Below are positions 1,040-40,973 of a stretch of DNA of 64,000 nucleotides, piece after piece; the stretch's first letter is position 1; each line of letters starts with the position of its first letter. The notes beneath the pieces were generated by a model. The model was not told the origin of the DNA. It worked only from the letters and a program-made list of their open reading frames with translations, and ran no database searches. The translations under genes were made by a program, and so were the position numbers. The stretch is taken from IMG/VR virus record IMGVR_UViG_3300031420_000399. One strand, written 5' to 3'. This stretch comes from a virus. Taxonomy: Duplodnaviria; Heunggongvirae; Uroviricota; Caudoviricetes.

Positions 1040-3184
1040 ATGGCTACCATTTCAGCCGCCCTCCGTCAGTCCGCTCTCCGTCGCGGCATCCTCGTCGAGA
1101 ACTTCTCCGGGAACAGCCCCGCCAGTGAGGTCGTGCGCTACGCCGCCGTCCTCGAGCTCGCCAACCTGGGCTTCCTCGTGCAGCCCGGTGACCTCAACGG
1201 CTTCTCGGCGGGCGCTTTGAGCTCCGCCATCGACAGCGCCCGCAAGATCATCGGCGCCGATCGGGACATGACCCCGATCTACCCGGGCTTCCCGAAGCAG
1301 GTCGAGGAGCTCTCCACGCTGCAGCTCCTCATGGAGCAGATCCTCCACTACTGGACTGCAGGCGCCTTCCTTCCGAACCACCCCGCAGAGGTCCGCGAGG
1401 GGCTGCCGCTGGAGGACATGCTGCGCAGTGGCCGGAAGCTCCAGCTCCTGTCCGCGGATGTCGCCCTGGAGCGACTCCTCAGCGAGCTCGTCAAGGCTCC
1501 CGTTGCGCTCTCCTCGGATGACCGGGAGCTCCTCACCGAGCTCACCAAGGCGGTCTACGGCGAGAACTTCCACCGGACCATCAGTACCTCTGACCTCGTG
1601 CGCAGCTCCACCAACGGTGAGAACATCCAGGTCTTCGCCGAGGCACTCCGGGATCATGCCAGCACGCTTGTCCACAGCCGGGATGACTACTTCTCTGCGC
1701 TGACCTTCGGTGTCCGCAACAGCGATCACCTCCTGCGGCTGATCCTGTCCTTCTACGGCGCTCCCGCAGCAGACCGCTGGGTCGAGAACTACGAGCTCGC
1801 CGTGGGCACTCTGGCCGACCGGCACTTCCGGGCAGTTCGTTTCTCGAGCGTTCCTCGCTACCAGCGTCAGCTCATCGTGGACGCCCTGGGTAAGCTCACC
1901 GAGGGTTACCGGGCCGACCGGCTCGTGACCCGTCAGAACCTCTGGCGCCGCGTCTTCAAGGGCCTCCACCCCTACGACCTGAAGCTCACGGTTGAGTCGA
2001 AGCGGGCTCTGGACATCGTCCACAGCAACATCGACTACCGGACCCTGAACTCGACCATCGAGCAGGCCCTGGAGGACCGGAAGGTCTCCGAGGCCGTAGA
2101 GCTCCTCGCTGAGCACCAGCCGGGTAATCTCCTCCGGCGCCTCGTGGCCATCCTTCGGCTCACCAAGAAGAAGGCAGACGCCAAGGTCCTCGCGAAGCGA
2201 GTTGCTGAGGTCGGCTCCAGGGCTACGCTCTCCACGCTGATCTCCTCCTACAACGGCGTCCTCGGCGCCAACGATGAGCACGCTCGGGTGAACCGGGTTG
2301 CGGGGCTCAACAACACGATGCTCGATCGAGGTGCCGTCGAGAAGATCGACGCGAACTTCCAGGCTGAGGTCCTCGAGGCTCTGGACCAGGCAATCATCGC
2401 TGCCCTCAAGGCAAAGGGAGCTCCTGTTGCGCCCGTAGGTGTCCTGGGAGACGCATCTGTGCCCCTGGTTCGCCGGGATGCTGCGAGCTCGGATCGAATC
2501 CTCGACCGGGGCGCTGAGCTCGGCCTCGTGGGTGAGGGCGATGTGCTCCGGCTCTTCGGCCACTGGAACAACAACATGGACCAGGGAAGCTACATGGACA
2601 TCGGAGCCGTCGTCCTCGACGAGGACTTCAACGAGATCTCCGTGAGCACCTGGAACTCCTGGAACTACGCCCGGAACTGGAGCACCTACTCCGGCGACAA
2701 GCTGGTCTACCCCGGAGACTCGGCAGCTGAGTTCGTGGATGTGAAGATCGAGGCGCTCAAGCAGAACCTCAAGGGTGCTCGCTGGGTAGCCATGACCGTG
2801 CAGTCCTGGGCCGGTTGGCCCATGGCAGATGTGGACTTCATCGCTGGAGCCATGCTCCGGCAGAAGGCCGGCGATCAGAAGGGTGAGGTCTTTGACGCTC
2901 GCTCCGTGACCACCGCCTTCAAGCCCACCACGAAGTCCACGCAGTCCGTGCCCTTCGCCGTGAACCTGGAGACGGGTAAGATCGTCTGGCTCGACTCTTC
3001 CAACGGTTCCACGGGTTCGGGTAACTCTGCCTCCAACGATGGCACTGTCGGCTCCATCGTCTACGACGAGGCTGCCCGGCCGAAGCTCTCCATGGGGCGC
3101 CTCGCCGAGCTCTGGGCCTCCGCCCACGGTGTCGAGACGGTTCAGGAGCCCGTAGACCGAGACGCAATCCTCGGACTTCTGTAG
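1040..3184 (+). CDS. large protein with C-terminal TerD-like domain (N-terminal 500 aa unassigned)
   Basis: 714-aa ORF; C-terminal block (LFGHWNNN, DIGAVVLDEDFNEI, YSGDKLVYPGDSAAEFVDVKIEAL, ARWVAMTVQSW) follows the TerD motif order; promoter 909-938 upstream. Confidence 0.7.
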   Translation: MATISAALRQSALRRGILVENFSGNSPASEVVRYAAVLELANLGFLVQPGDLNGFSAGALSSAIDSARKIIGADRDMTPIYPGFPKQVEELSTLQLLMEQILHYWTAGAFLPNHPAEVREGLPLEDMLRSGRKLQLLSADVALERLLSELVKAPVALSSDDRELLTELTKAVYGENFHRTISTSDLVRSSTNGENIQVFAEALRDHASTLVHSRDDYFSALTFGVRNSDHLLRLILSFYGAPAADRWVENYELAVGTLADRHFRAVRFSSVPRYQRQLIVDALGKLTEGYRADRLVTRQNLWRRVFKGLHPYDLKLTVESKRALDIVHSNIDYRTLNSTIEQALEDRKVSEAVELLAEHQPGNLLRRLVAILRLTKKKADAKVLAKRVAEVGSRATLSTLISSYNGVLGANDEHARVNRVAGLNNTMLDRGAVEKIDANFQAEVLEALDQAIIAALKAKGAPVAPVGVLGDASVPLVRRDAASSDRILDRGAELGLVGEGDVLRLFGHWNNNMDQGSYMDIGAVVLDEDFNEISVSTWNSWNYARNWSTYSGDKLVYPGDSAAEFVDVKIEALKQNLKGARWVAMTVQSWAGWPMADVDFIAGAMLRQKAGDQKGEVFDARSVTTAFKPTTKSTQSVPFAVNLETGKIVWLDSSNGSTGSGNSASNDGTVGSIVYDEAARPKLSMGRLAELWASAHGVETVQEPVDRDAILGLL

Positions 3185-4637: not shown

Positions 4638-5117
4638 ATGAACAGCTTCCAGTACCCCGCCGCAGTGGCAGGCCGCGCAGAGCTCCTCAAGTTCTCCTAT
4701 GTGGCCCTCGCCATCGGTGCAGCTGAGCTCGCCCCCGAGCTCGCGGCCCTGGAGTCCATCCTCGGCGATGACTACGAAGAGCTGACCCGCAACCGACGGC
4801 TTCGGGACGGTGGCTCCGACTTTCACGCCACCATCGTGCTCCCCAAGGAGTTCAGGACGCTCCGCAAGAGCGCATCTGGTGGTCGCATCGAGATCCCTTC
4901 GAAGGAGCTCGAACTGGAGATCCTCGGCATCGGCACCGCAATTAGCGAGGCGTCCCAGACCTGGTTCGCCATCGCCCGCTCTGAGGCCGTTGTTGCCTAC
5001 CGGAAGCGCCTGGGGCTCCCCTCCCACGATCTCCACATCACCCTGGCCTTCGAGGCCGCAGGCGATGTCCATGGTGTCCCCAAGGATGCCAGCACCCTTC
5101 TGACCACCACCCGCTAG
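4638..5117 (+). CDS. hypothetical protein (159 aa)
   Basis: leaderless ATG 6 nt after tgTAAGGT (4626-4631). Confidence 0.6.
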   Translation: MNSFQYPAAVAGRAELLKFSYVALAIGAAELAPELAALESILGDDYEELTRNRRLRDGGSDFHATIVLPKEFRTLRKSASGGRIEIPSKELELEILGIGTAISEASQTWFAIARSEAVVAYRKRLGLPSHDLHITLAFEAAGDVHGVPKDASTLLTTTR

Positions 5118-5415: not shown

Positions 5416-5466
5416 GAACTTCGACCTTCAGCTCCAGTACCGAGCGCAGCTCTTCCTTCGGAGTGG

Positions 5467-5496
5467 TTGCGCTTTCGTGCTCCATGGATGTAGGAT
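5467..5496 (+). promoter_or_regulatory. promoter: TTGCGC-18-tgTAGGAT, leaderless ATG 5503
   Basis: 6 nt gap. Confidence 0.6.
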
Positions 5497-5502
5497 TCTC
5501 CC

Positions 5503-9978: not shown

Positions 9979-10350
9979 ATGATCTCCCTGAACGAAGAGG
10001 AGCAGTTTCTCATCAGCTCCCAGCGAGATGTAACCCTGCTCCTTGAACCCTACTACGGCCGGGTGATCAAGGTCGAGCGACTCCACAGGGAAAGCAGCAG
10101 GCTGATCTCGAACCTCTACATCGGTCGCATCGAGTTCCTTTCCCACCTTGGGAAAGAAGCTCAGGTGGGCGTGAAGAGCTACAGCCTGTCTACGATCAGG
10201 CTCACCGGCTACAACGAGGATCTCTGGATCTGGCCTCCGCAGAGCCGCATCTCTCTGCTCCAGGAAGATCTCGGTCAGTGGAAGGTCATCTACCAGGGCG
10301 AAAAGTGGGAAGACACCCATCCAGAGCTCGCGAAGAAGGAAAGCGCATGA
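9979..10350 (+). CDS. small paralog-family protein P2 (123 aa)
   Basis: C-terminal motif QEDLGQWKVIYQGEKW shared with P3, P4, P5. Confidence 0.55.
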   Translation: MISLNEEEQFLISSQRDVTLLLEPYYGRVIKVERLHRESSRLISNLYIGRIEFLSHLGKEAQVGVKSYSLSTIRLTGYNEDLWIWPPQSRISLLQEDLGQWKVIYQGEKWEDTHPELAKKESA

Positions 10351-10781
10351 TCGGCGTCAGCGAAGACCAGGAAGCTCAAGTCAAGGCCAACCTCGACGAG
10401 CTCCACCGCAGTATCCTCGGATTCTACGGCCGTGTGCTTCAGGTGAGAACCAGGCGTCTGGACTTCGACTACGGCTACAGCTACGACGGCTACGCTGACG
10501 ATCCCAGCTATGTGGACCACATCTACGAGAACAGCTCCGGCAAGATCGTGGGCGTGAATCTCAGTAGCCGGTATCGTACGGGCACATCCCAGGACTTGGC
10601 CACCGCAGAGCTTCGCTACAAGTTCCTCGAAGTCATCCTCGAGGGTGGCCAGAAGCTCTCGGTGGAGCTCGATTCCAGCGAGCTCTCGGTGCTCCAGGAA
10701 GATACGGGCCAGTGGAAGCTGGTCCATCGGGGCAACGGTTGGAAAGAGCCGTCCACCAACGACAAGAAGGACACACAGTGA
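10347..10781 (+). CDS. small paralog-family protein P3 (144 aa)
   Basis: ATGA overlap with P2; motif QEDTGQWKLVHRGNGW. Confidence 0.6.
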   Translation: MIGVSEDQEAQVKANLDELHRSILGFYGRVLQVRTRRLDFDYGYSYDGYADDPSYVDHIYENSSGKIVGVNLSSRYRTGTSQDLATAELRYKFLEVILEGGQKLSVELDSSELSVLQEDTGQWKLVHRGNGWKEPSTNDKKDTQ

Positions 10782-11224
10782 TCGACCTCGACCAGCAGAG
10801 CTCAGAGGGAGTTTTCAGCGAGAGCTCCAACTTGCAGGATGTCTATCGGATGTTCACGGGCTACTACGGTAGGACCCTGAAGGTCAGCTCCTCTAGCGCT
10901 CGAACAGAGTATGGCTACCTCACGGAGGAAGTGAAGAAGAGGAACCCCAGAGATCTCATGAGAAGCGTCGAGGAAGTCGTAGCAACTCTGACTGAGATCC
11001 AGCTCGTAGCCCGGGGCAATAGCGGCTTCGGTGGCTCTTCTCCTCGCCGGATCCCCGGCGCAGTTAAGCTCGGCCTTCGGAATCGGGAGCCCCTCGATGT
11101 GCTCTCATCCGGCAATCGCATCGAGGTATTCCAGGAAGACATTGGCCAGTGGAAGCTCCTGTTCCAGGGGAGCGCCTGGTCCGACTACAGCGATGCTGGA
11201 ATCTATCGAGGAGGTAGACTGTGA
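10778..11224 (+). CDS. small paralog-family protein P4 (148 aa)
   Basis: GTGA overlap; motif QEDIGQWKLLFQGSAW. Confidence 0.55.
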   Translation: MIDLDQQSSEGVFSESSNLQDVYRMFTGYYGRTLKVSSSSARTEYGYLTEEVKKRNPRDLMRSVEEVVATLTEIQLVARGNSGFGGSSPRRIPGAVKLGLRNREPLDVLSSGNRIEVFQEDIGQWKLLFQGSAWSDYSDAGIYRGGRL

Positions 11225-11541
11225 TCGGCGTGGCCGAAGAGAAGGTGGAGATCGAGAGTAGCTCCAAGCCCAGGCGAGTCCATCGGCTGCTGGAGCTGCA
11301 AATCGGCCGTATTCTGCGCTTTGAGCTCGACGACAGGAGCTGGGGAGTCTCCGTGACCAGTGGGAAGCTCCTTGGAGTTTCGCTCAGCGGAGATGACATC
11401 GAGCTCAAGATCAGGGGCTTCGACCGCATCGAGTACGATCCTGAAGAGTACTCGGCCCAGATTTCAGTGTTCCAGAAGGACACCGGCAAGTGGAAGAAGA
11501 TCTACAGGAGCAAGGGCTGGGAGAAGGGACTCGGACTGTGA
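11221..11541 (+). CDS. small paralog-family protein P5 (106 aa)
   Basis: GTGA overlap; MIGV start; motif QKDTGKWKKIYRSKGW. Confidence 0.6.
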   Translation: MIGVAEEKVEIESSSKPRRVHRLLELQIGRILRFELDDRSWGVSVTSGKLLGVSLSGDDIELKIRGFDRIEYDPEEYSAQISVFQKDTGKWKKIYRSKGWEKGLGL

Positions 11542-11918
11542 TTGCGATCTCAAACGATAGCTCCATCGCTACGACAGCGGGCTCGAAGCGCGAGCTCAGG
11601 GACTGGCTGGCTCCCTGCTTCGATCGGCTGGTCAGGGTGAGCTACATCGCCAGCAAGGAACATGAACCCATCGTCATCAAGCAGCGCACCGGACGCATGG
11701 CCGAGCTGCGCTACATCGGTGGCTACAGCTCCCAGATGGTCTACAGCGACGAGCTCAGCAAGCTCAGCCTCCGCTTCAGAGGTGAGGAGTCAGCCGATGA
11801 GCTCCTCATCGTGGAGTCAGATACGGTTGAGATCTTCCAGGAAGACAGTTCATCCTGGAAAATGCTCCACTGCTCTCCTCGCATCGGGGAGCTCATCCTG
11901 AAGGGGTTCGAGCTGTGA
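11538..11918 (+). CDS. small paralog-family protein P6 (126 aa)
   Basis: GTGA overlap; motif FQEDSSSWKMLHC. Confidence 0.5.
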   Translation: MIAISNDSSIATTAGSKRELRDWLAPCFDRLVRVSYIASKEHEPIVIKQRTGRMAELRYIGGYSSQMVYSDELSKLSLRFRGEESADELLIVESDTVEIFQEDSSSWKMLHCSPRIGELILKGFEL

Positions 11919-14518: not shown

Positions 14519-15877
14519 ATGGTCAAAAGCAACAGTAAAATCCTCGCAGTAGCACTCTGTGCAGTTACCCTCGGAGGATTGGCCATCGTCCCCAGTGCGT
14601 CGGCCTCAGACATCCTCGGTAGCAGCTTCATGGTCAAGGCCACGAACAAGCAGGAGAACCAGTTCTTCGGTATCCGCGGCTACAAGGCCCCGGGCAAGGG
14701 CGATGGTAGCGGAAGTGGCTCAGGATCCACACCCGGCGGCGGCACAGGGGATACCCCGGGCGGATCTGGTGGGAGTACTGGTGGCACTTCGCCTGGCGGA
14801 GGATCGGGTGGCACCGTAGGTGATACGGGCGATGGCTCAGATCCCAGCGGGCTTCCATACACTGGAGATCAGGGAGCAACCCGGGCGAACACCACAGCCG
14901 GCTACTGGAGTAGCATGGCCTACGGCGCTGGCAAGTACCTCGCAGTGAGCTACATCGGCGATAGCACTTTGAGCTCAACCGATGAGGGCAAGAGCTGGAA
15001 GACCGATCCTCTTCCCTCGGGCAACTGGAACGGGGTCGCCTTCGGCAACGGACGGTTCGTAGCTGTCGCTCAGGCCGAGAGCGGAGATCCAGCAGTCGGC
15101 GGCCAGATCGCCACATCAACGGACGGGGTTAGCTGGACAGTCAGGAGAACTCCTGGCTACAGCTATCAGAGCGTAGCCTACGCAAACGGTATCTTCGTGG
15201 CAGTGGGCAATGACTCCAGCCAGGCAGTGATCCAGACCTCCACGGATGGTTCGGGATGGACTGACAGGAGCCTCCCCACCGGCTTCATCGACAGTAGCCA
15301 CGAGGGCACCATGATCCTTGCCCGGGTTCAGTTTGTGAATGGTCAGTTCTATGCTGAAAGCGGGCTCGGCCTCGACCCGAACGATGGTCAGTACTCCCGG
15401 AGTGCGCTCCTCATCAGGTCCACTGACGGCAAGAGCTGGAGCACTACCAAGGCCCTTCCTGGCACCTCAGCCGGTTGGACCATGATCGGCAACGGCATCA
15501 CCAGCTACAGCCGGGACAAGATCGTCAAGACATCCTCGGGGCTCATCCACACGGCTCTGTCATTGGACGGAAACGGTTCTGATTTCTTCAGATCCACCGA
15601 CGGCGGTAACAGCTGGACCAAGTTCACGCCGACTGGTCTTCCGGCGATGGTGACTCCACAGTTCGCTTCGGGCAACACGATCTTCGCTTACTCTCCGGTG
15701 GAAGACAACATCCAGTTCTACAGCTCCACTGATGGAGGCTACAGCTGGAACCAGGTGGTTGATGGCTATCTGACGAGCGGATTCGGCTTCCGCAATGAGT
15801 TCGCCAGCGCTACCCACGGCAACTGCACCGTGTCGATTCCCATGGCTAGCTCTTCGGCTTTCCGCTACTGCAGCTGA
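14519..15877 (+). CDS. secreted BNR/Asp-box repeat protein (sialidase-like beta-propeller), 452 aa
   Basis: signal peptide; Gly/Ser/Thr-rich linker; at least 6 Asp-box motifs (STDGVSW, STDGSGW, STDGKSW, STDGGNSW, STDGGYSW, TDEGKSW). Confidence 0.7.
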   Translation: MVKSNSKILAVALCAVTLGGLAIVPSASASDILGSSFMVKATNKQENQFFGIRGYKAPGKGDGSGSGSGSTPGGGTGDTPGGSGGSTGGTSPGGGSGGTVGDTGDGSDPSGLPYTGDQGATRANTTAGYWSSMAYGAGKYLAVSYIGDSTLSSTDEGKSWKTDPLPSGNWNGVAFGNGRFVAVAQAESGDPAVGGQIATSTDGVSWTVRRTPGYSYQSVAYANGIFVAVGNDSSQAVIQTSTDGSGWTDRSLPTGFIDSSHEGTMILARVQFVNGQFYAESGLGLDPNDGQYSRSALLIRSTDGKSWSTTKALPGTSAGWTMIGNGITSYSRDKIVKTSSGLIHTALSLDGNGSDFFRSTDGGNSWTKFTPTGLPAMVTPQFASGNTIFAYSPVEDNIQFYSSTDGGYSWNQVVDGYLTSGFGFRNEFASATHGNCTVSIPMASSSAFRYCS

Positions 15878-15912
15878 GATTTCAGCGGGCTGAGGAAATT
15901 TTTGGGGATCGG

Positions 15913-15940
15913 TTGCGCTTCGATAGAAAGCGTGTACAGT
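15913..15940 (+). promoter_or_regulatory. promoter: TTGCGC-16-tgTACAGT (ATG 15996)
   Basis: family consensus. Confidence 0.5.
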
Positions 15941-15995
15941 AGTGCTCACACCACAACCTCGGAGCTCACCACTCCACTGCTCAAAGGATTTCATC

Positions 15996-16163
15996 ATGGC
16001 TGCCAAGAACAAGGCCCCCAAGTACCGCGGCATCGAGAACCACAAGTACGCCGTTGAGATGCACGGCCTCCGCTCCTCCGGTGCTGCGGGCACCCACAGC
16101 AACAAGCCCAACCGTCAGCGCACCCGGGCCACCGCGAAGAAGTTCGCCATCAGCCAGGGCTGA
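15996..16163 (+). CDS. small basic protein (55 aa)
   Basis: SD AAAGGA upstream; promoter 15913-15940; perfect terminator 16179-16223 downstream. Confidence 0.5.
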   Translation: MAAKNKAPKYRGIENHKYAVEMHGLRSSGAAGTHSNKPNRQRTRATAKKFAISQG

Positions 16164-16178
16164 GCGCTCCTGACCACA

Positions 16179-16223
16179 GGGACTGCCGCCAGATTCACGC
16201 GATCTGGCGGCAGTCCCGTTTTC
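16179..16223 (+). terminator. intrinsic terminator: 16-bp perfect stem GGGACTGCCGCCAGAT/ATCTGGCGGCAGTCCC plus GTTTTC
   Basis: after gene 15996-16163. Confidence 0.75.
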
Positions 16224-16323
16224 ATATGAGCTTCCGGTGAGCTCCTTGTGGGCTCCTGCACTTCGTTACCATCTCGATATGGAAGCAGGCAATCAAAAGA
16301 GCAGCAATAGCCAGGAGAGACCT

Positions 16324-16884
16324 ATGGGAAAGAGAGCGCAGAGAGCGACCGGAATCACGGTCTCAGCCCTCGCAGTGGCCATGCTCATCAGCGGGTTCAC
16401 TCCCGGCGGAGGATCGCTGAACGACTTCTCGATCAGCTCAGATGACGGAACGATCCAGGAAGATGCGGCTCCCCGTGCCTACAATGAGCTCACTTCAACC
16501 CGTGGCATCGGTAAGCCTGAAGCTCACTCCGATAGCACCATGAGCTCCGATCCCTGGGAAACAGCTGCTAGAGCTCCAGGTCGATCAGTCGCCAGGGATT
16601 CTCATGGGAGCTACTACCTAGCAGACCAGCTCCTCCTTCGGACACAGAAGGGCGTAGAGCCAAAGGCCTTGATCTCTGAGCTCCCTCCCGGGAATCTGCA
16701 TATAGCTGCCAGCGACGGAGCGCACCGGGAGTACCGGGTACTCCTCCCTGAGGCCCTTTCGAAGACGGAGCTCCAGACGGTCGCAAGTGGCTGGGAAGCC
16801 CATCCATCAGTAGAGAGCGCCAAGATCATCGAGCTCGCCCCGCTGAGGGACTCTGATCTCATCGGCGATGGATCATCGGCCTAA
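16324..16884 (+). CDS. secreted protein (186 aa)
   Basis: SD GGAGAG; N-terminal signal-like segment ITVSALAVAMLISGF. Confidence 0.55.
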   Translation: MGKRAQRATGITVSALAVAMLISGFTPGGGSLNDFSISSDDGTIQEDAAPRAYNELTSTRGIGKPEAHSDSTMSSDPWETAARAPGRSVARDSHGSYYLADQLLLRTQKGVEPKALISELPPGNLHIAASDGAHREYRVLLPEALSKTELQTVASGWEAHPSVESAKIIELAPLRDSDLIGDGSSA

Positions 16885-16984
16885 GGGCTCAACTGCGCTT
16901 AGGAAGGCAGCTGAGGGCAGTAGCCTCAGAGTAGGCTGCTCGCAGGAGGCTCCCTCTTCAATTTCTGCGGCGAAATCGATGAAG

Positions 16985-17012
16985 TTGCGCTTATGTCACA
17001 TAGTTTTAGGAT
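16985..17012 (+). promoter_or_regulatory. promoter: TTGCGC-16-TAGGAT upstream of secreted paralog S1
   Basis: about 70-nt leader to TTG 17090. Confidence 0.5.
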
Positions 17013-17089
17013 GAAAATGGTCAATCATCAATGTGAATGTGTGATATGGGCATCTATCTACTTTCGTACTTCCTCTTGGAGCCACCACC

Positions 17090-18244
17090 TTGAACAGAAA
17101 GTCCCCTCACGCGCACAAGGTCATCATCGGTGCCCTCGGCGTGGCCATCGTCCTTCCCTTCCTCATCTCTCCGGCCTCAGCAGCTTTCGACAGCGGAACC
17201 TTCCTTGTCCACGCTCAGGATCAGGCTCAGCCCAAGTTCCACGAGGCCTACGCGGGGATCAAGGGGACCAAGTCCGGTGATACTGGTGGCACACCTGGCA
17301 CACCTGGCGGCGACACTGGGGACAGCTCAGCTACACTTGCAACCTACACGGCTGGATCGCTCAGCCTCAAGATCACTCAGGCCATGCTCGACTTCTCCGC
17401 GGCCAATGTGAAGGCACAGGAAGAGGGTCGTACCGAAGATATTAAGACCGATCCCTCCGGCTGGCAGACGATCTGGTTCTACGACAATGATTCGGGCGAT
17501 GCTACTCAGTCGATGCCTGCAGCTGACGCTTCCAGCATCGACATGATCTTTAGCAGGGAATCTACAAAGCCCAGCCCTGACTCCCTCTACAATCGTATCA
17601 GCAACAACATGGTTGCTCAGTACAACCAGTCCCCAGGAAGTAATTCGATGACCGACGGAAGGGTCGCTCCGAAGGCTGACAATCTCTATGCCTATAAGAA
17701 GGCGGCAAGTGGTTACAGCAATGAGCTCAAGGAAGGCCGATACATCTCTGAGGATGGTAAGCTCGTAGCTGTTGAAGTTGACGGCACCGGTGACGGGAAC
17801 TACCAGATCAACAGGAAGACATCTCCTACAGATGCGACTCCAGTCCCAAGTGACACTAAGCCCTACGATCTCATCCTCTCGAACCGTGGAGTTGAGTCCT
17901 TGAGCATTAGACTCAAGGCCACCACAGATGGCTACGATCAGCTGTGGATTCAGGGAAATGGCACTCAGATCCGCTTCGGCAAGTATGCTAGCGTAGGCCC
18001 CTACGGCATCAATGTAGACGATGCCGTGAGGCGGCATGGCCCTGTCTCACTGAACCTTGACGGCGATGGTAACATCACCAGCTTCCTCTACGCTGACGCT
18101 GATGGTCAGAATCAGTATGTGGGAGATGAAGGAGCTACTTACACAGTAGCTGACTACAACTCGATCACCGGCCAGGACTGGGATGGTAGCTACCCCAAGC
18201 TCTCCGATTTCGACACCGACAAGCCCTTCGAGCCCAAGGGTTAA
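17090..18244 (+). CDS. secreted paralog-family protein S1 (384 aa)
   Basis: TTG start (TTGAACAG); signal peptide cleavage site PASAAFD; Gly/Thr/Pro linker; C-terminal motif YNSITGQDWDGSYPK...PFEPKG. Confidence 0.65.
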   Translation: MNRKSPHAHKVIIGALGVAIVLPFLISPASAAFDSGTFLVHAQDQAQPKFHEAYAGIKGTKSGDTGGTPGTPGGDTGDSSATLATYTAGSLSLKITQAMLDFSAANVKAQEEGRTEDIKTDPSGWQTIWFYDNDSGDATQSMPAADASSIDMIFSRESTKPSPDSLYNRISNNMVAQYNQSPGSNSMTDGRVAPKADNLYAYKKAASGYSNELKEGRYISEDGKLVAVEVDGTGDGNYQINRKTSPTDATPVPSDTKPYDLILSNRGVESLSIRLKATTDGYDQLWIQGNGTQIRFGKYASVGPYGINVDDAVRRHGPVSLNLDGDGNITSFLYADADGQNQYVGDEGATYTVADYNSITGQDWDGSYPKLSDFDTDKPFEPKG

Positions 18245-18260
18245 TTTCTTCCGGGCTATT

Positions 18261-18315
18261 GCAAAGGAGCATGTGAGCTCGTTCAATCGCTCACATGCTC
18301 CTTTGCTGTTTCGTG
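18261..18315 (+). terminator. terminator: 18-bp perfect stem GCAAAGGAGCATGTGAGC/GCTCACATGCTCCTTTGC, tail tgtttcg
   Basis: between S1 and S2. Confidence 0.65.
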
Positions 18316-18368
18316 ATATGGCTGTTCAAGTTCGCCTAACCAGCATCCGTTTCGATCAGGAGATCCAC

Positions 18369-19508
18369 TTGAACAGCAATCAGGGTAGATCCAGGCTCAT
18401 CGCTCTCACAGTGGGCTGTGCACTCGCAGTCCCCCTCCTTACTCTGCCCGCTTCAGGGGCCGTCTCAGATGGCAAGTTCAAGGTCCACGCTTGGAATTTG
18501 GACACGCCTAAGATCGAAGCCTATGCCGGAAACAGTGGCACCGGAAGTGACGCCGGTGGAAATCCTGGTGGTGGAACAACAGATCCCGATCCGGGAGAGG
18601 CCCTCGCTTCCTTTAGGAGTGGCCCACTGAGCATCACCGTGACAGACGATATGCTTGCCTTCTCTGAAGCCAACAGAAAAGCCCAGGAGGAGGGTCGTAC
18701 CGAAGACATCAGGACCCACTCCGATGGCTGGCAGACCATCTGGAGCTACGATGCGACCTCTGGTTCGATCGTCCCTGGGCTGCCAGACAAGAACACCATC
18801 TTAGTGGTCCTAGCAAAGAATTCTCTCCAGCCATCGCCCGGGGACGCCGTCAATGGCACCGGTGGGCAGATCACGGCTGTTTACCTGAAAAATGCGGATG
18901 ACTGGTACAGCATTTCAGATTACAGGAAGACTCCTAGCCCCGGCGTGAGCTACTACTATGCTGTCTCTGGAAATTACTACGGCGAGAGTCGCTACTTCTC
19001 CGAAGACGGAACGCTCGTTGGGGTCAATGTGGCCCATCAGAACGACGGCTCCATGACGGTCAATCGCCAGGACGATCCCACCAAGTTTACGAGCTACCCC
19101 AAGAGTAACTCTAAGCCCTATTCCATCAGATTCGAAGATGGACAGCCGACTGACATGAACATTCTGCTCAAAGATTCGAGCAAGGGCTACAATCAGATCC
19201 AGGTCCAGAAGACAGATTCTAGTATGTTCAATATATACTACAGGAACTACAAGGGCCAAACGCCAGATGGCCAAAATGACATGGACTATGGAACGAGGAC
19301 CGATGGCCCTGTTAGCCTGATCATCGATGGGTCAACTGGGAAGATCGCCAATTCTGGATATCGAGACAAAAATGGGAACATGCAGAGCACGGGTGCGCTC
19401 AGCGGCGTCGCCGAGTACAATCAGGTGACAGGCCAGAGCTGGGATGGGAAGTACCCGAAGTACTCAGACTTCGACATAAGCATTCCCTTCGAGCCCACAA
19501 AGCCATAG
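18369..19508 (+). CDS. secreted paralog-family protein S2 (379 aa)
   Basis: TTG start in the same TTGAACAG context as S1, with SD AGGAGA; C-terminal YNQVTGQSWDGKYPK...PFEPTKP; track ORF 18183 extends upstream across the terminator. Confidence 0.6.
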   Translation: MNSNQGRSRLIALTVGCALAVPLLTLPASGAVSDGKFKVHAWNLDTPKIEAYAGNSGTGSDAGGNPGGGTTDPDPGEALASFRSGPLSITVTDDMLAFSEANRKAQEEGRTEDIRTHSDGWQTIWSYDATSGSIVPGLPDKNTILVVLAKNSLQPSPGDAVNGTGGQITAVYLKNADDWYSISDYRKTPSPGVSYYYAVSGNYYGESRYFSEDGTLVGVNVAHQNDGSMTVNRQDDPTKFTSYPKSNSKPYSIRFEDGQPTDMNILLKDSSKGYNQIQVQKTDSSMFNIYYRNYKGQTPDGQNDMDYGTRTDGPVSLIIDGSTGKIANSGYRDKNGNMQSTGALSGVAEYNQVTGQSWDGKYPKYSDFDISIPFEPTKP

Positions 19509-19519
19509 AGCCTGTCAAG

Positions 19520-19571
19520 CTCGCCGCTTGATTGTGCTAAAGTTGGAACTCCTGCACAATCAAGCGGCGAG
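19520..19571 (+). terminator. 18-bp perfect hairpin CTCGCCGCTTGATTGTGC/GCACAATCAAGCGGCGAG with 16-nt loop, no U-tract
   Basis: between S2 and S3. Confidence 0.45.
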
Positions 19572-19714
19572 GGGTCAGCGTCCCTAAGTAGGGGGAACTA
19601 CCCTGGTCTGTGGTTCTGGCTGAGCTCATCTAGTAGGAAATTGCTATCCCAGATCACGATGCTTCAAGCTACATTGCGATATGGAAGCTGGTATCTACAT
19701 GTAGGAGCATCAAG

Positions 19715-20824
19715 TTGGAAAAGTTCTCTCAGCGCACAAAGCTCGTCTGCTCTCTGGTCGGTGTAGCTTTAGCTGTTCCTCTTCTAGTTGCCCCAGCCTC
19801 TGCCGCCCTAGATGGCGGTCATTTCTATATCCATGCTCAAGACTTTGACAGTCCTAAGCCCCACGAAGCCACCGCTGGACTCGGCGGTTTCAAGGCAGAT
19901 GAAGGCTCTGAGGGCACTGCTCCGGCTGTCACTCTAGCTGACTACAGTTTCGGCCCTATGAAGCTCACTGTTACCGACGCCATGGTGAACTTCGACAAGG
20001 ACAATCGCGCCGCATCCTCACCTACTACCACAGCTGATGGATGGCAGGGGCTCTACAACTTTAATTCCGCGACAAGCCCCAATGTAGTACCAGGTTGGCC
20101 TACGGACGGCTCGAAGCCGAGCCAGTTCTACCTGACCTCTGGACTCACCACCCCAAATCGAACAGCTGCCTATCCAGAAGGTGTGATAGCCTACGCGAAG
20201 TCCTATGACACAAGCTACACGGCAATGGATTCGAGGAATCCGAGCGCAGGTAAGGCCTTCTATTACTACTGGTCTAAGGCTTTCAGCTCGACGAGTACTG
20301 ACAGCTTCACTGAAGGTCGCTACGAGCAAATCGATGGAAGCCTAGCTGCCACTAGGGTCGGAACTCAGAGTGGGGGCGTGAGTGTCAACCGCTACGAGTC
20401 TGCCAACAGTGGTAAGCCAGCTCTGAGCGACAGCTACCCTAGCACTGTTAGCGTCTCCACCGACGGCAACCGCACTGCCGTTATGACTTTCAAGAAGACC
20501 ATCGACGGATACAACTACGCCAACTACAGAAAGAATGCCGACGGTTCTGGCAACATATCCTATTCCTACTGGAATGGAGCGATGTCGAGCTACGGAACCA
20601 TCACCGGAGTCGGTGCCCCATCCCGTACGAACGGCCCCACGGCCGTCCAGTGGGACAGTAGTGGAAACATCGTCGGACTGAGCTCTCCGGGGAAGACCAT
20701 CACCGCTCCTTTTACGGCAGATCATTACAATGAGATCACGGGCCAGAACTGGGATGGTTCTTACCTGAAGCCTGCTGATGTTAAGCTCGATGCACCATTC
20801 GAGCCTACGAAGGCTACCAGGTAG
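19715..20824 (+). CDS. secreted paralog-family protein S3 (369 aa)
   Basis: TTG start with SD GTAGGAG; signal peptide ...PASAALD; C-terminal YNEITGQNWDGSYLK...PFEPTKATR. Confidence 0.65.
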   Translation: MEKFSQRTKLVCSLVGVALAVPLLVAPASAALDGGHFYIHAQDFDSPKPHEATAGLGGFKADEGSEGTAPAVTLADYSFGPMKLTVTDAMVNFDKDNRAASSPTTTADGWQGLYNFNSATSPNVVPGWPTDGSKPSQFYLTSGLTTPNRTAAYPEGVIAYAKSYDTSYTAMDSRNPSAGKAFYYYWSKAFSSTSTDSFTEGRYEQIDGSLAATRVGTQSGGVSVNRYESANSGKPALSDSYPSTVSVSTDGNRTAVMTFKKTIDGYNYANYRKNADGSGNISYSYWNGAMSSYGTITGVGAPSRTNGPTAVQWDSSGNIVGLSSPGKTITAPFTADHYNEITGQNWDGSYLKPADVKLDAPFEPTKATR

Positions 20825-20921
20825 CTTCTCATAGGTGCGACTTAAGTTGAACCACTGATTAGTATTTCAGCTTCCTAGGGTACGATACGGTTGCAAAGTT
20901 AAACCATTCAAGGAGTAGGAC

Positions 20922-22142
20922 TTGGTTAGATTCTCAAACCGGGACAAAACTGTTGCCGGTGCACTCGGAATCCTAGCTGTGGGAGCTGTGCTCTTCAGCC
21001 TTCCCGCGTCTGCCGGAACCGGTGGCGATAGTTTCTTCGTTCACTCTCAGAGTGGCGTGGCTACTGCTAAAACCTTCGACGGCTACGCTCCGCGAATGCC
21101 CAAGGATGGATCGACTTCGCAGCCCGGTGGGAATAGCGGAGGTTCGGATCCGGGTAGCGGTAATACAGCCAACCCTACTCCAAGCCCTACGGGTGCTCCA
21201 ACGACACAGCCCACTCAAGCTCCAGCCCCCGATCCAGTTGCTCTGGCCGGCTACAAGTGTGGACCCATGAGCCTCTCGGTTACCGATGCCATGCTGCAGC
21301 ATGACCGGGACAATCGGGCCCTCGTCACGGCTGGAAAACCCGATCAGGTACGCTCAGGCTCTGAAGGCTGGCAGTCCATGGTTCACAGTCTCACAGGGCA
21401 GTCGTCGGTCATCGAGGGCGCCCCAGCAGACAGCAACGCTGCTAGGCTCTCCCTACTTCGGCTGAGCTCGACCATGAGCCCTTCGGATAGTAGCGCGCTC
21501 TTCAGTAGCACGATTGCCTCACTGAATAACACTACTTCAGCTTGTGACATCTTCGATGCCCGCATCCCACAGCTTGCTGGCAACGACTACAGATACCAGT
21601 GGAGTGGTACGAGCACCTACAGTGAGTCTCGCTACATCAACGAGGGAGGTTCCCTCAAGGGTGTCACCGTCAGTAAGAACAATGGATCGACCACCGTGGA
21701 TCGTGTCGTCCCAGGTTCTCTTCAGCCCATCGTCAGCGACACGCTACCCTACAGCTACCAGTCGAGTTCCACTCGAGACTACGCGAGCATTGCCTACGCC
21801 ACCACTACCGATGGCTACAACGGTGGAACCTACACTCTGAATCCCGATGGTTCCGGCACCATTCAGTACTTTTACTGGGACCAGAAGAGCTACTCTGCCA
21901 CAGGAACACCTACCGGTCTTTTGACTGCTAAGCGACTTCTCGGCCCTACACGGATCACCTTCGATTCTTCCAGTATTACTGGACTACGCTACGCCGACAG
22001 CAATGGAGTCGAGCGGTCCCTCACCTCTCCTTACACTGTGGCTCATTACAACCAGGTTACCGGCCAGAACTGGGATGGCAAGTACACCAAGTTCGGTGGA
22101 GTCAGTAAAACTATCCCCTTCATTCCAAAGGCTAACCGGTAG
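20922..22142 (+). CDS. secreted paralog-family protein S4 (406 aa)
   Basis: TTG start with SD AAGGAG; signal peptide ...PASAGTG; Pro/Thr-rich linker; C-terminal YNQVTGQNWDGKYTK...PFIPKANR. Confidence 0.65.
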   Translation: MVRFSNRDKTVAGALGILAVGAVLFSLPASAGTGGDSFFVHSQSGVATAKTFDGYAPRMPKDGSTSQPGGNSGGSDPGSGNTANPTPSPTGAPTTQPTQAPAPDPVALAGYKCGPMSLSVTDAMLQHDRDNRALVTAGKPDQVRSGSEGWQSMVHSLTGQSSVIEGAPADSNAARLSLLRLSSTMSPSDSSALFSSTIASLNNTTSACDIFDARIPQLAGNDYRYQWSGTSTYSESRYINEGGSLKGVTVSKNNGSTTVDRVVPGSLQPIVSDTLPYSYQSSSTRDYASIAYATTTDGYNGGTYTLNPDGSGTIQYFYWDQKSYSATGTPTGLLTAKRLLGPTRITFDSSSITGLRYADSNGVERSLTSPYTVAHYNQVTGQNWDGKYTKFGGVSKTIPFIPKANR

Positions 22143-24658: not shown

Positions 24659-25039
24659 ATGAAGTCTGCCCGATATGGGCTCACCATGAAGGACACCGCC
24701 ACAATCACCACGCTGCCCCGCCATCCCCATCGCGGCTACCAGCGCTATCGAGAGTGGATACAGGAAAGACATCCCTGGCTTCAGATAGCCAACAAGATCC
24801 TCATCGCCATCGCAGGTGTGGTGGTCATAGCCGTGGGCATCGTCCTCATCCCCCTCCCCGGACCGGGCTGGCTCATCGTCTTCTTCGGGCTCTCGATCCT
24901 CGGCCTCGAGTTTCCTCCCATCCAGCGCTTCACCCGCTGGATTCTCGACAGGCTGAAGCCGCTCTGGAGAGCTGTTCAGCGTAGGCTTCCAGCACGCTTC
25001 AGTCGCTCTAGAGTTGTGCAGCCCTCAGAGCCTCGCTGA
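24659..25039 (+). CDS. PGPGW-motif transmembrane protein (126 aa)
   Basis: motif LIPLPGPGWLIVFFGL between two hydrophobic helices; SD AAGGA. Confidence 0.65.
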   Translation: MKSARYGLTMKDTATITTLPRHPHRGYQRYREWIQERHPWLQIANKILIAIAGVVVIAVGIVLIPLPGPGWLIVFFGLSILGLEFPPIQRFTRWILDRLKPLWRAVQRRLPARFSRSRVVQPSEPR

Positions 25040-29614: not shown

Positions 29615-29736
29615 CTCAGGTCGCTTAGCTGCAAGCTGTTTTCCACGGCGTCTTTTCTTCAGCTACCGCACGAGCCGCATCGTGTATCAGAAACTGCCAT
29701 CCTGAGAAAAGTGCCGGCTCAACCATGGGATCGACA

Positions 29737-29775
29737 GGCTAGAGCATCGCTACTCCTTGTGCTCTAGCCTGCGCG
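29737..29775 (+). repeat. hairpin-family element e2: GGCTAGAGCA-loop-TGCTCTAGCC-TGCGCG
   Basis: perfect 10-bp stem; the 3' flank CTCTAGCCTGCGCG(T/C)TCAG matches e1. Confidence 0.45.
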
Positions 29776-29857
29776 TTCAGGTTGCGAAATCAGCCCGTCT
29801 CTCCGGTCCAAAAATCGATCGGGCCGATCCTTTGAATCTGCATTCTGGGCTCATAGT

Positions 29858-29885
29858 TGTGAAAGCCTAGCTGTCCATGTAGGAT
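29858..29885 (+). promoter_or_regulatory. promoter: TTGTGA-16-tgTAGGAT, leaderless ATG 29892
   Basis: 6 nt gap. Confidence 0.55.
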
Positions 29886-29891
29886 CGTCTC

Positions 29892-31397
29892 ATGGCATCA
29901 CGACAGAGTTCTCGCTACGACCTACCCCACGGCTCCAAGCCCAACCGAGGGCGCATCCTGCTCTCCATCGGAGCTTCCCTCCTGCTCTCCATCGTCCTCA
30001 CGGTGGGCTTCAACGCCTTCAGTGCGAGCTTTGCCGGAGCCTCCGGCCTGAGTGGGCAGCCAGTTGCCGCATCTGCTGAGCCCAACGGACTCGTGGATGT
30101 GGTCTTCGACGGCGCAGAGGTGATCAGCTCCGAGGATCGACTCGCCATCAACGCGGCTGCTCGAACGATCTTCGAGGACTATGGTGTGGCCATCTCCGTG
30201 GGCACCACCAACAGCACCGGTGGCAAGTCCATCGAGGATTGGGCCAAGGAGCAGGCGGAAGCCCACGGCGGCGGATCGGCTGAGCTCAACAACGGACTCT
30301 TCTATGGCATCGACATGGGATCCCGGCAGTACTCGGTGGTCAAGGGCACGGGCTACGCCAGCATTCCGGACAGTGAGCTCGACTCCATCCTGGCAAGCTC
30401 CTTCGTGCCGCAGCTGAAAGAGGGCCACTACGCAGATGCTGTCATCGAGTCCGCCAAGGCCTTCGGTGAGCGCGCCAAGAACGGTCCCGCTCAGCCTCAG
30501 GAATCCTCTACCGGCTTCAGCGATGAGCAGCTCCAGGGCATCGGCGCCTTCTTCAAGTACGCTGGTATCGCCGTGGGTGGAGGGATCGTCCTCTTCGGCG
30601 GCGCTTTCCTCATCCGTCGTCAGCTCCGCATCCGCTACGAGCAGGAGCAGGAAGCCCTACGAGCTGAGGCTGCTCGCGTCAAGAGAGAGAAGGAGAACCG
30701 GCGCATCGATGCTGTACTCTCCCTGAAGGAAGGTCAGTGGAAGGAGTTCGCCAAGCTCCCCAACGAGGAAGCGCGTATCACCTGGCTCAAGGAGAAAAGT
30801 GTCTACAGCAAGGCCTTCCTTGGGGAGTACGACTGGGAAGACGAGTCACTCCTCGAGGCCAACATCATCGACTACCACTTCAGTGAGCTCCAGGACTGGC
30901 ACCACCCATCTTCCGCCGCCTTCGACAGCTCGAGCTCTGTGAATCAGCAGCTCAAGGAGACAGCGGAACGCCGGAAGCGCGAGGAAAAGGCCCGGGTCGC
31001 CGCAGAGAAGAAGCGCGCAGAGGAGGAGCTCGTTCGCAGGGGCGCCAAGAGCTTCTGGAAGGGGCTTTCTAAGTCCGAGCGGGCTGAGTACTCGAAGCTG
31101 AAGTCTGACCGGGAGCGCAGGGATTGGACCACTCGCAGGACCCTCCAGGATGCCTCTGACTACAGCCGCCGGCAGGATGGATCCAACTTCTTCGGGCTCA
31201 ACCCTGTCTTGGCCATCGCCGCCCTCACGGGGCTTGCCCAGAGCGACGAGCGCTCGAGCCGGAGTTCTTCCTCGAGCTCATCCTATGGCTCATCTTCCTC
31301 GTCGTCCACGAACTACAGTGGCTCATCGAGCTACGACTCTTCGAGCATGTTCGGAGGCGGAAGCTTCGATGGAGGCAGCTCCAGCGGGAGCTTCTGA
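29892..31397 (+). CDS. TPM-domain membrane protein with coiled coil and Gly/Ser-rich tail (501 aa)
   Basis: leaderless ATG 6 nt after tgTAGGAT (29880-29885); TM helix, TPM-like region, second TM helix, coiled coil, SSSSSSSYGSSSSS...GGGSFDGGSSSGSF tail. Confidence 0.65.
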   Translation: MASRQSSRYDLPHGSKPNRGRILLSIGASLLLSIVLTVGFNAFSASFAGASGLSGQPVAASAEPNGLVDVVFDGAEVISSEDRLAINAAARTIFEDYGVAISVGTTNSTGGKSIEDWAKEQAEAHGGGSAELNNGLFYGIDMGSRQYSVVKGTGYASIPDSELDSILASSFVPQLKEGHYADAVIESAKAFGERAKNGPAQPQESSTGFSDEQLQGIGAFFKYAGIAVGGGIVLFGGAFLIRRQLRIRYEQEQEALRAEAARVKREKENRRIDAVLSLKEGQWKEFAKLPNEEARITWLKEKSVYSKAFLGEYDWEDESLLEANIIDYHFSELQDWHHPSSAAFDSSSSVNQQLKETAERRKREEKARVAAEKKRAEEELVRRGAKSFWKGLSKSERAEYSKLKSDRERRDWTTRRTLQDASDYSRRQDGSNFFGLNPVLAIAALTGLAQSDERSSRSSSSSSSYGSSSSSSTNYSGSSSYDSSSMFGGGSFDGGSSSGSF

Positions 31398-31510: not shown

Positions 31511-32563
31511 ATGGGTTCTGTCATCGGAGTGATTTTCCTCCTCGTCCTCGTCTTCGGAGGTCTTGTGACCTTCGCCACCCTCTCCAAGAAGCGTCGGGCC
31601 ACCGACAAGGAGATCGCTGAGGGTCGCAAGCTCGTCGACAGCGGCCGCCGGGGCTACGACGCCGAGCCGAAGCTCACGGATGGTGCCATCAAGCGCCTTC
31701 AGATGAGCTCCTCGATCTACAACGGTAGCCGCTGGGCCGCCCTCGGCGTTGCGGTCCTCGCGCTGATCATCGCTGTCACCATGTCCACGACCACCGTCTC
31801 GGCCAAGAATGTCGGCGTGGCCGTCAACTTCGGCAAGGTCTCGCAGCAGACCCTGAGCCCGGGCCTCCACTTCAAGGCTCCCTGGACCAAGGTCATCGAG
31901 ATCGACGGCACCATCCAGACCGACCAGTACGCTGGCGACAGCTGCATCAAGGTCACCATCGGCGACGGTAGCCAGGCCTGTGCGAAGATCACCAACCGCT
32001 GGCAGATCAACCCGGAGAACGCCGCCTCGATCTACGAGCAGCACCGTTCGGATGACCCGACTCAGTCCTTCCGGGCCGCCACCATCAGCACGCAGCTCGA
32101 GCAGGCCATCAGCGAGACCCTGGGTAAGTACAACCCGATCTCGAACCTGAAGGTCGTCGGCGGTTCCGATGACGCCACCCAGGTCTCCTTCGTTCCCGAC
32201 TACGACAAGCTGTCGAAGGAGATCGAGGACAACATGAAGGCCCGCCTCGATAAGGCTGACCAGGCTGAGATCGTGGGCATCACCTTCTCCCACCTGGACC
32301 TCTCGGACAACACCCAGAAGAAGATCAACGACTACATCGCCGCTGTCGGTGAGACCCGGATCGCCCTCCAGCAGAAGGAGACCGCTGCTGCTCAGGCTGC
32401 TGCCAACAAGGAGCTCTCCGCCTCGGTGAGCAACGACCCCAATGTGCTCGTCTCGCGCTGCCTCGACATCCTCAAGGACTCGTCGCAGAATGGCTACAAG
32501 CTCCCCGCGGGCTTCAGCTGCTGGCCTGGCGACAACGGCACCATCGTGGTCCCCAAGGGCTAA
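31511..32563 (+). CDS. SPFH/band-7 family protein (350 aa)
   Basis: N-terminal TM helix plus SPFH-like core; TTGACA/tgTAAGGT promoter 31438-31466; SD GAAAGGGAA; terminator 32586-32623. Confidence 0.7.
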   Translation: MGSVIGVIFLLVLVFGGLVTFATLSKKRRATDKEIAEGRKLVDSGRRGYDAEPKLTDGAIKRLQMSSSIYNGSRWAALGVAVLALIIAVTMSTTTVSAKNVGVAVNFGKVSQQTLSPGLHFKAPWTKVIEIDGTIQTDQYAGDSCIKVTIGDGSQACAKITNRWQINPENAASIYEQHRSDDPTQSFRAATISTQLEQAISETLGKYNPISNLKVVGGSDDATQVSFVPDYDKLSKEIEDNMKARLDKADQAEIVGITFSHLDLSDNTQKKINDYIAAVGETRIALQQKETAAAQAAANKELSASVSNDPNVLVSRCLDILKDSSQNGYKLPAGFSCWPGDNGTIVVPKG

Positions 32564-32585
32564 GCCTCACGGCTAATCCCTCCAA

Positions 32586-32623
32586 GGGCTCCCCAACCTT
32601 CGGGTTGGGGAGCCCTTCCCATT
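32586..32623 (+). terminator. intrinsic terminator: 13-bp perfect stem GGGCTCCCCAACC/GGTTGGGGAGCCC, tetraloop ttcg, tail ttcccatt
   Basis: after SPFH gene. Confidence 0.7.
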
Positions 32624-32671
32624 GGCTAGGCTGCACCAGTAGAAGTCGTTGCCGAAATGTGCTCTCAGGAG

Positions 32672-32701
32672 TTGCCAGATGCCCACCTAAGGGCATAGAA
32701 T
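32672..32701 (+). promoter_or_regulatory. promoter: TTGCCA-18-TAGAAT, leaderless ATG 32709
   Basis: 7 nt gap. Confidence 0.55.
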
Positions 32702-32708
32702 AGCTCCC

Positions 32709-40903: not shown

Positions 40904-40938
40904 GCTCAGTAACTTTTCGGCCGAGAGGGGCTAGGTGG

Positions 40939-40967: not shown

Positions 40968-40973
40968 TCTTCC

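Follow-up and report, generated by a model that had tools for sequence, protein, structure and literature searches.

The 64,000-nucleotide stretch of the IMG/VR virus record IMGVR_UViG_3300031420_000399 (Caudoviricetes), referred to below as the window, contains at positions 14519-22142 a group of genes for exported proteins, comprising a propeller gene, a gene for a 186-residue protein (p186) and four paralogous genes, S1 to S4. A first-pass annotation made from the sequence alone had placed five open reading frames for secreted proteins here, and all five were found at these positions, although two more genes in the interval (15996-16163 and 16324-16884) had been overlooked. The analysis shows that the interval is a cassette array, in which a constant Sec-type N-terminal module is joined to interchangeable beta-rich domains, and which has its own promoter-like motif and a signature of a Shine-Dalgarno (SD) sequence followed by a TTG start codon. 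The features are listed below in order, with protein lengths in amino acids (aa).

14519-15877, plus strand: propeller gene (452 aa, ATG start), for an exported 7-bladed Asp-box beta-propeller protein
15996-16163, plus strand: gene for a small, very basic protein (55 aa), a conserved marker of where the array lies in all related elements
16179-16217, plus strand: strong intrinsic-terminator-like hairpin (16-17 bp stem and T-run) that ends the 55-aa gene
16276-16282, plus strand: promoter-like heptamer GATATGG, 5′ of the p186 gene
16324-16884, plus strand: p186 gene (186 aa), whose product has a signal-anchor at its N-terminus and lacks an AxA site; it stands, conserved, at the head of the S array
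17043-17049, plus strand: heptamer GATATGG, 5′ of S1
17090-18244, plus strand: S1 (384 aa), TTG start behind GGAG; signal peptide, handle, Gly-rich linker and beta-meander domain
18261-18306, plus strand: terminator-like hairpin, a perfect 18-bp inverted repeat 3′ of S1
18315-18321, plus strand: heptamer GATATGG, 5′ of S2
18369-19508, plus strand: S2 (379 aa), TTG start behind AGGAG, in the context TTGAACAG
19520-19571, plus strand: hairpin, an inverted repeat with 25-nt arms 3′ of S2
19678-19684, plus strand: heptamer GATATGG, 5′ of S3
19715-20824, plus strand: S3 (369 aa), TTG start behind AGGAG
20884-20890, plus strand: GATACGG, a variant of the heptamer with one mismatch, 5′ of S4
20922-22142, plus strand: S4 (406 aa), TTG start behind AGGAG
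24672-25039, plus strand: gene for a PGPGW transmembrane protein (PF09656) with a fifth GATATGG, 7 nt before its ATG (24686), in a leaderless arrangement

Exported paralogs and their constant N-terminal module

S1 to S4 (369-406 aa) had been described as paralogs with a Gly-rich linker and a conserved C-terminus, and this is confirmed by their pairwise identity of 33-42% over the whole length, with 62 invariant columns, and by the C-terminal motif YN.(I/V)TGQ.WDG.Y.K ... PF(E/I)P, which is present in all four. Signal peptides were called by heuristics only, namely the charge of the n-region, Kyte-Doolittle hydropathy and the residues at the cleavage site. An n-region charge of +2 or +3 and a hydrophobic 12-mer with a mean hydropathy of 2.6-3.0 are common to the propeller protein, p186 and S1-S4, and the Sec-type signal peptide assigned earlier to the S proteins was recovered by this heuristic as a signal-peptide-like N-terminus in 4/4. 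The cleavage site P-A-S-A/G is conserved in S1-S4, with small residues at -3 and -1 as in substrates of signal peptidase I (SPase I), and by the same heuristic the SPase I pattern is conserved in 13 aligned members of the family.

No later hydrophobic or transmembrane segment, and no LPXTG, lipobox or twin-arginine motif, was found in the propeller protein, p186 or S1-S4. The C-termini of the S proteins are PFEPKG, PFEPTKP, PFEPTKATR and PFIPKANR, without LPXTG or a hydrophobic segment behind them, and a sortase-anchored reading was dropped because both are absent. A lipoprotein was dismissed in the same way, there being no conserved Cys and P-A-S-A/G in the cleavage region of all members, as was export by the twin-arginine (Tat) pathway, since the motif is missing. 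The first-pass annotation had also allowed that the paralogs might belong to a known cell-wall-anchored family; the S proteins lack LPXTG and matched no known family.

The same N-termini bear on whether these are virion proteins. If the hydrophobic segments were not functional signal peptides, the products could be receptor-binding or decoration proteins of the particle; Gly-rich linkers with beta-propeller or beta-sheet binding domains do occur in actinophage tail proteins, and some homologs of the propeller lie on uncultured Caudovirales contigs (P0170). We consider this very improbable: the n-, h- and c-region anatomy with the P-A-S-A site is kept across 91 family clusters, no structural PHROG was matched and no match was found in BFVD at E ≤ 1e-3, the array stands among membrane-protein genes rather than in a structural module, and a divergent relative has a pilin-like N-terminus in place of the signal peptide, which again implies export.

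Inspection of an AlphaFold2 (AF2) model of S1 (predicted local distance difference test score, pLDDT, 77) suggests two parts. Residues 1-79, covering signal, handle and linker, are unstructured with pLDDT below 50, and residues 80-384 form a confident beta-meander with two short helices. The first part corresponds to a module that recurs in other proteins, consisting of the signal peptide, a handle of about 25 aa (GxFxVHAQD..PKPHEAxAG) and a flexible Gly/Thr/Pro linker, and it is joined to unrelated beta-rich C-terminal domains: the S-type beta-meander, a 7-bladed propeller and MORN-like repeats. Several matches to the S profile are limited to the N-terminal 130 or so positions (signal, handle, linker, first hairpin and helix) and continue into other domains, such as the MORN-like HRxDGPA repeats of P0060 and P0081, while another group of such matches terminates in YESAGGTGWIG. 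P0086 and P0089 are Asp-box propellers with S-type handles. In the related element L097, three genes fill the slot 5′ of the basic-protein gene: one of the S type, one for a propeller with an S-type handle, and an ortholog of the window propeller gene. The handles of the first two, which are adjacent, are identical at 31/35 residues and their C-terminal domains are unrelated. For the MORN-like repeats an identity with MORN or YwqK proteins was looked for, and no MORN family model matched and no clear structural match was obtained.

The divergent relative mentioned above is P0081, which has its pilin-like N-terminus in common with a neighbour carrying DUF285, so that surface display is implied again. 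The pair lies at L095 3-3697, next to a thymidylate synthase gene. The common hydrophobic N-terminus (..GVLAAIFGVIPW..) is fused in one gene to DUF285 (BspA-like) repeats and in the other to the N-terminal core of the S family with MORN-like repeats. Here, then, variable surface domains are combined with a constant N-terminus of a second kind.

The propeller protein of the window has the same order of parts: a signal peptide, a handle-like FMVKA segment, a Gly-rich linker of about 60 aa and the propeller (residues ~112-452). Its cleavage site and handle could be aligned with the S profile by hhalign (E 4e-5). Six S-x-D-x-G-x-x-W Asp-boxes can be read from its sequence, and its AF2 model (pLDDT 75) has 7 blades behind a signal, handle and Gly-linker region of about 110 residues. 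The first-pass annotation had called it a sialidase- or glycosidase-like neighbour of the S genes. Secretion (again by the heuristic), the six boxes and the position beside the S genes all stand; the enzymatic label does not, and the protein is more than a mere neighbour, since it shares the handle and is a further cassette of the same system. Asp-boxes are turn motifs with a structural role, and their presence is no sign of sialidase activity. A sialidase of the GH33 type was rejected because there are seven blades rather than six, the sequence has no FRIP/RIP motif and PF13088 scored 23.7 bits against a cut-off of 31.4; all Pfam and NCBIfam matches (BNR_2, NF045728) were far below their cut-offs, and no catalytic residues were identified. 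Its homologs are mostly propellers of the DUF6242_C type within large multidomain surface proteins, some from the Caudovirales contigs noted above. The propeller is thus generic and not sialidase-like. Compared with known Asp-box propellers (Ycf48, sortilin/Vps10, GH74, DUF6242_C), it scores below the Pfam gathering thresholds and carries a lineage-specific module of signal, handle and Gly-linker.

These observations also weigh on a reading close to that of the first-pass annotation, in which the products are secreted glycan-binding, adhesive or hydrolytic proteins acting on polysaccharide, neighbouring cells or debris, and aid release and spread or aggregate hosts. The Asp-box propeller fold is common to GH74 enzymes, lectins and the ligand-binding YncE and BtuG proteins, beta-rich repeat-like domains are typical binders, and proteins with neither membrane anchor nor LPXTG could be released. 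On the other hand, neither a catalytic motif nor a match to a glycosidase family was found, the conserved handle and linker suggest tethering over free release, and the weak TTG start argues against bulk secretion. We regard it as a doubtful explanation.

Start codons and a promoter-like heptamer

All four S genes have (A)GGAG 6-8 nt 5′ of a TTG codon, and S1 and S2 share the identical start context TTGAACAG, as had been noted at first reading. In S1, S3 and S4, no canonical start other than the TTG lies between the in-frame stop on the 5′ side and the codons of the hydrophobic core. The mechanically called frame of S2 reaches back to an ATG at 18183 and overlaps S1; its actual start is at 18369, where TTGAACAGC follows cAGGAG. 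When the start position was taken from the profile alignment, 19 family genes in five elements gave 14 TTG, 2 ATG, 1 GTG and 2 without a canonical codon. Among the gene-caller starts of seven loci, TTG was used in 9/192 genes, and all 9 are family members. The TTG start is enriched and conserved in the family, and it is not exclusive to it.

One of the family genes deserves separate mention: L005 7114-8277 has a good SD sequence (GGGAGAG) and no ATG, GTG or TTG between the upstream stop and the signal peptide, and the codon at the expected start is ATA. It may use a non-canonical start or be a decaying copy.

The S genes have a leader of 30-50 nt with a strong SD sequence before the TTG. At many neighbouring genes, a TANNNT hexamer lies 6-7 nt 5′ of the ATG without an SD sequence, the leaderless arrangement common in Actinomycetota; examples are TAGGAT, TAGTAT, TAGAAT and TATGGT (window 5416-5502, 29615-29891, 32564-32708, 40904-40973, 51433-51679 and others), and the element seems to rely widely on leaderless mRNAs. 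The contrast drawn earlier between the S genes and leaderless ATG genes around them holds for many neighbours, but at least two other genes in the window also look to be of the SD and TTG type. One of them, at 54724-55281, has a clear AGGAG and TTG start, and its product begins MTTKTVTLDDITGEIID..., which may resemble the dimerisation region at the N-terminus of Lsr2-type nucleoid proteins.

Five copies of the heptamer GATATGG are present in the window, always on the plus strand, 5′ of p186, S1, S2, S3 and the PGPGW gene. In the window together with L002, L004 and L005 (121 kb), there are 14 copies on the plus strand and 0 on the minus strand, and all 14 stand 5′ of a p186, S or PGPGW gene; the copy at the PGPGW gene is kept in L002 and L004. 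Counting the GATACGG variant, the motif precedes 5/6 exported-protein genes, the exception being the ATG-start propeller gene, and its distance to the array genes is 30-96 nt. The spacing to the leaderless ATG of the PGPGW gene suggests a -10-type element (G-14, with TATGG at -12 to -8) in which the T normally present at -7 is missing, and such an element would define a distinct promoter class. The ATG inside the heptamer was also considered as a leaderless start and rejected, as only p186 and S2 are in frame with it and no consistent -10 sequence precedes it. The hairpins 3′ of S1 and S2 lack strong T-runs, and none was seen 3′ of S3 or S4. The array is further set apart by its GC content (0.535-0.568 versus about 0.60 elsewhere) and its GC content at third codon positions (GC3; 0.60-0.63 versus 0.70-0.85 in neighbours).

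A distinct promoter class could be a late one, and exported phage-encoded proteins under it might be accessory factors of lysis or egress, active on the wall and working with a holin or endolysin late in infection. No hydrolase, esterase or amidase domain was found in them, however, and the neighbourhood contains no lysis genes; a lysis function would moreover not be expected to involve four to six divergent paralogs in variable copy number. This explanation appears unlikely.

Distribution, variation and genomic context

The S family is known from metagenomes only, at the same syntenic locus each time and with 2-6 copies. A word-indexed search of 5.8 billion proteins returned 10 members, all of them unnamed and without a Pfam domain, and an exhaustive HMMER search of 1.84 billion representatives returned 91 clusters, 49 of them at E < 1e-30. 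Neither megablast with the region nor tblastn with S1 found a match in the phage and plasmid collections, and no member turned up in 72,556 plasmids or in 185,579 species-representative genomes (GTDB scan). The family profile found nothing in a sequence search of the PDB, and the BFVD fold search gave nothing at the threshold stated above. Pfam, PHROGs and NCBIfam hold no family for S1-S4 apart from one chance-level Pfam match (BH3, E 0.095), and PADLOC yielded a single match, also at chance level (S3, HEC-07, E 0.0057). The S family is accordingly an undescribed exported protein family. What is new is the family and its N-terminal module; the category, accessory exported proteins of phages, is already known.

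The related elements differ in the number of S copies, with 4 in the window, 4 in L002, 3 in L004, 6 in L005 and 2 in L008, and the site is syntenic. A gene for a basic protein of 54-56 aa precedes the array in every one of them, the propeller gene is found in only some, and only 5 relatives of p186 are known. The view that the S genes are diverging is supported: compared with L002, identity is 41% for S1, 37% for S2, 57% for S3 and 69% for S4, against 53-91% for flanking genes, and both copy number and gene order vary, the S genes being shuffled relative to L002. The proportion of synonymous differences (pS, Nei-Gojobori) is 0.66-0.74 and thus saturated for the S pairs, and 0.33-0.58 for the flanks. 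Whole-gene ratios of nonsynonymous to synonymous divergence (dN/dS), the check proposed with the earlier claim of diversifying selection, are 0.12-0.32, and that claim is not sustained; because of the synonymous saturation, dN/dS is uninformative as a test of positive selection. From the saturated pS relative to the flanks and these ratios, we conclude that the S cassettes are older or exchanged alleles under overall purifying selection.

The 55-aa basic protein (MAAKNKAPKYRGIENHKY...) is probably outside the exported set. It is 78-91% identical to its relatives and matched no family. Its gene has a GC3 of 0.81, the maximum of the neighbourhood, with the 16-17 bp terminator hairpin behind it, and compared with L002 its pS of 0.155 is unusually low (0.33-0.74 in all neighbours) though protein identity is only 78%. 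Possibly the gene is strongly expressed, or its nucleotide sequence is under constraint.

The window has about 90 co-directional genes with a coverage of 89%. The 714-aa product of window 1040-3184 has a match to phrog_33734. Its counterpart in Mycobacterium phage WXIN is 45% identical, and weaker matches come from Rhodococcus phage Weasels2 and from jumbo phages. The 714-aa protein is also found in the Xanthomonas jumbo phages XacN1 and Xoo-sp13 and in Lactobacillus phage LpeD, and phrog_33734 is a widely distributed large-phage protein without annotation. Further domains of the window are MazG, HNH, SprT-like and the 2H/HAD 'Swiss Army Knife' (SAK) RNA-repair domains, and genes for RNase T and NAPRTase lie immediately outside it. 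The 2H-SAK, HAD_SAK, MazG and SprT-like domains are located at 4638-5117 and elsewhere in the window, an AAA/STAND-like ATPase at 44495-45904 and the HNH-type protein at 59246-60610. Envelope and membrane families are represented by DUF808, fatty-acid desaturase, cation efflux, TPM, SPFH, PGPGW, META and a lipoprotein PHROG, and the desaturase is closest to Actinomycetota (40-44% identity to Microbacteriaceae and others). These host-like envelope genes are unusually concentrated for a phage-like element at 29892-57903, with TPM at 29892-31397, SPFH/Band 7 at 31511-32563, cation efflux at 45935-47059 and the desaturase at 56782-57903; DUF808 and META came from the window-wide Pfam matches.

Judged from its gene content, the element is phage-like, probably a jumbo actinophage, with contigs of 149-346 kb; the affinity to Actinomycetota is seen in the desaturase and in the leaderless type of promoter. 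No virion genes were found in the window or its roughly 10-kb flanks, and for this reason we use the term phage-like; neither an integrase nor a repressor was seen in the window. A plasmid or integrative and conjugative element is a minority alternative, under which the array would encode surface proteins for cell-cell contact or niche adaptation on a large actinobacterial plasmid or integrative element. The lack of virion genes in window and flanks, the absence of the family from IMG/VR and the phage collection, and the many host-like membrane and metabolic genes would suit such an origin. It is nevertheless improbable, for the family is equally absent from the plasmids and species-representative genomes searched, domain scans showed no conjugation, relaxase or partition domains, the 714-aa protein is common to actinophages and jumbo phages, and large phages typically show what is seen here, namely a uniform strand, tiny overlapping reading frames and genes for MazG, HNH, RNA-repair, RNase T and NAPRTase. 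The idea that the array encodes host-interaction proteins is retained with a change: because the context is phage-like, as seen from the 714-aa protein and the domains of the window, the 'host' is the bacterial envelope of the phage host.

Possible decoration of the infected-cell envelope

The reading we favour, tentatively, is that the array is an accessory module for the envelope, carried by a large phage-like element from uncultivated sources in Actinomycetota, and that its moron-like cassettes decorate the envelope of the infected cell and possibly serve superinfection exclusion. Both roles are inferred. The proteins would be exported by Sec and cleaved by signal peptidase at P-A-S-A, the handle would dock the cleaved protein in the envelope, and the linker would let the variable domain extend through or over the wall. 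There the variable domains may bind envelope components or incoming competitor particles, altering the infected-cell surface in the manner of Ltp or CwpV, by superinfection exclusion or receptor masking. The weak TTG, the non-canonical -10-like element without T at -7 and the low GC3 would hold down the production of these Sec substrates or restrict it in time.

The array resembles phage morons in the lower GC and GC3, the variable presence and copy number and the exported products, and possibly in the promoter-like element at most of its genes and the terminator-like hairpins at S1 and S2. It differs in being made of tandem paralogs with a common N-terminal module and a conserved TTG, and its promoters are putative. 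In Ltp and in gp41 of a Cutibacterium acnes phage, the signal peptide is followed by a disordered linker and this by a domain that folds outside the cytoplasm (PMC11480721). The S proteins have the same layout as this type (Ltp of Streptococcus thermophilus phage TP-J34; gp41), which likewise comes from phages of Gram-positive or actinobacterial hosts; Ltp, however, is a lipoprotein with helix-turn-helix repeat domains, whereas the S proteins have no lipobox and are all-beta, and no similarity of sequence or fold was found. CwpV combines a constant anchor with a C-terminal domain that varies and in which the antiphage activity, of a Sie-like kind, resides (PMC4737114). The CwpV of Clostridioides difficile is alike in its constant N-terminus, its antigenically distinct repeat-rich C-termini and its tightly limited expression, but it is host-encoded, has CWB2 wall-binding repeats and is phase-variable by DNA inversion, and no homology to the S family was detected. 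Ltp-type proteins and CwpV would be functional analogues rather than homologs. Polymorphic secreted effectors also recombine a constant N-terminal module with unrelated C-termini and keep cassettes side by side; here the folds are of binding type (beta-meander, propeller, MORN-like) and the signal is plain Sec, and no toxin or immunity family was found in the cluster with Pfam, NCBIfam or PADLOC.

Several points weigh against envelope decoration. The signal peptides rest on heuristics rather than SignalP, the handle is of low confidence in the S1 model and no docking partner was found, and no domain of known activity was detected in S1-S4 in the Pfam, NCBIfam, PADLOC, BFVD and PDB searches. 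Capsid, portal and terminase genes are absent from the 64-kb window and its roughly 10-kb flanks, and the IMG/VR scan with the family profile gave no match. Purifying whole-gene dN/dS is not by itself the sign of an arms race. The TTG start seems to be shared by the window genes at 35252 and 54724, and the role of GATATGG as a -10 element is deduced from position and spacing, the heptamer itself containing an ATG.

A bolder alternative is that signal, handle and linker constitute a previously unknown surface-display system specific to this phage lineage, with its own docking, swapped cassettes, a GATATGG regulon and throttling by TTG. The handle, in which hydrophobic residues alternate along an F-x-V-x-A strand and His, Asp and Glu residues are conserved, could dock for example by strand addition to a dedicated receptor, possibly the co-conserved membrane-anchored p186, and interchangeable binding domains would be traded between phages as cassettes. 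The regulon would depend on the non-canonical GATATGG, perhaps through a phage-specified sigma factor or activator, and TTG would throttle synthesis. We hold this to be rather unlikely as it stands.

To our knowledge, large Actinomycetota phages are almost unexplored, and we know of no account of how they remodel the infected Gram-positive envelope. If the cassettes exclude competing phages, they would form a new class of superinfection-exclusion proteins. The portable N-terminal module could be a new envelope-targeting device, useful for actinobacterial surface display, and the family-wide weak TTG together with the distinct promoter-like motif offers a natural example of expression-limited secretion.

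Elsewhere in the window, an array of paralogous proteins of about 190 aa was suspected at 60.6-63.5 kb and was dropped, as BLASTP gave no support. A second tandem paralog family is found at 9979-11918, where five proteins of 106-148 aa match each other in pairwise BLASTP at E 1e-4 to 5e-11; these paralogs diverge fast as well, with 27-63% identity to their counterparts in L002.

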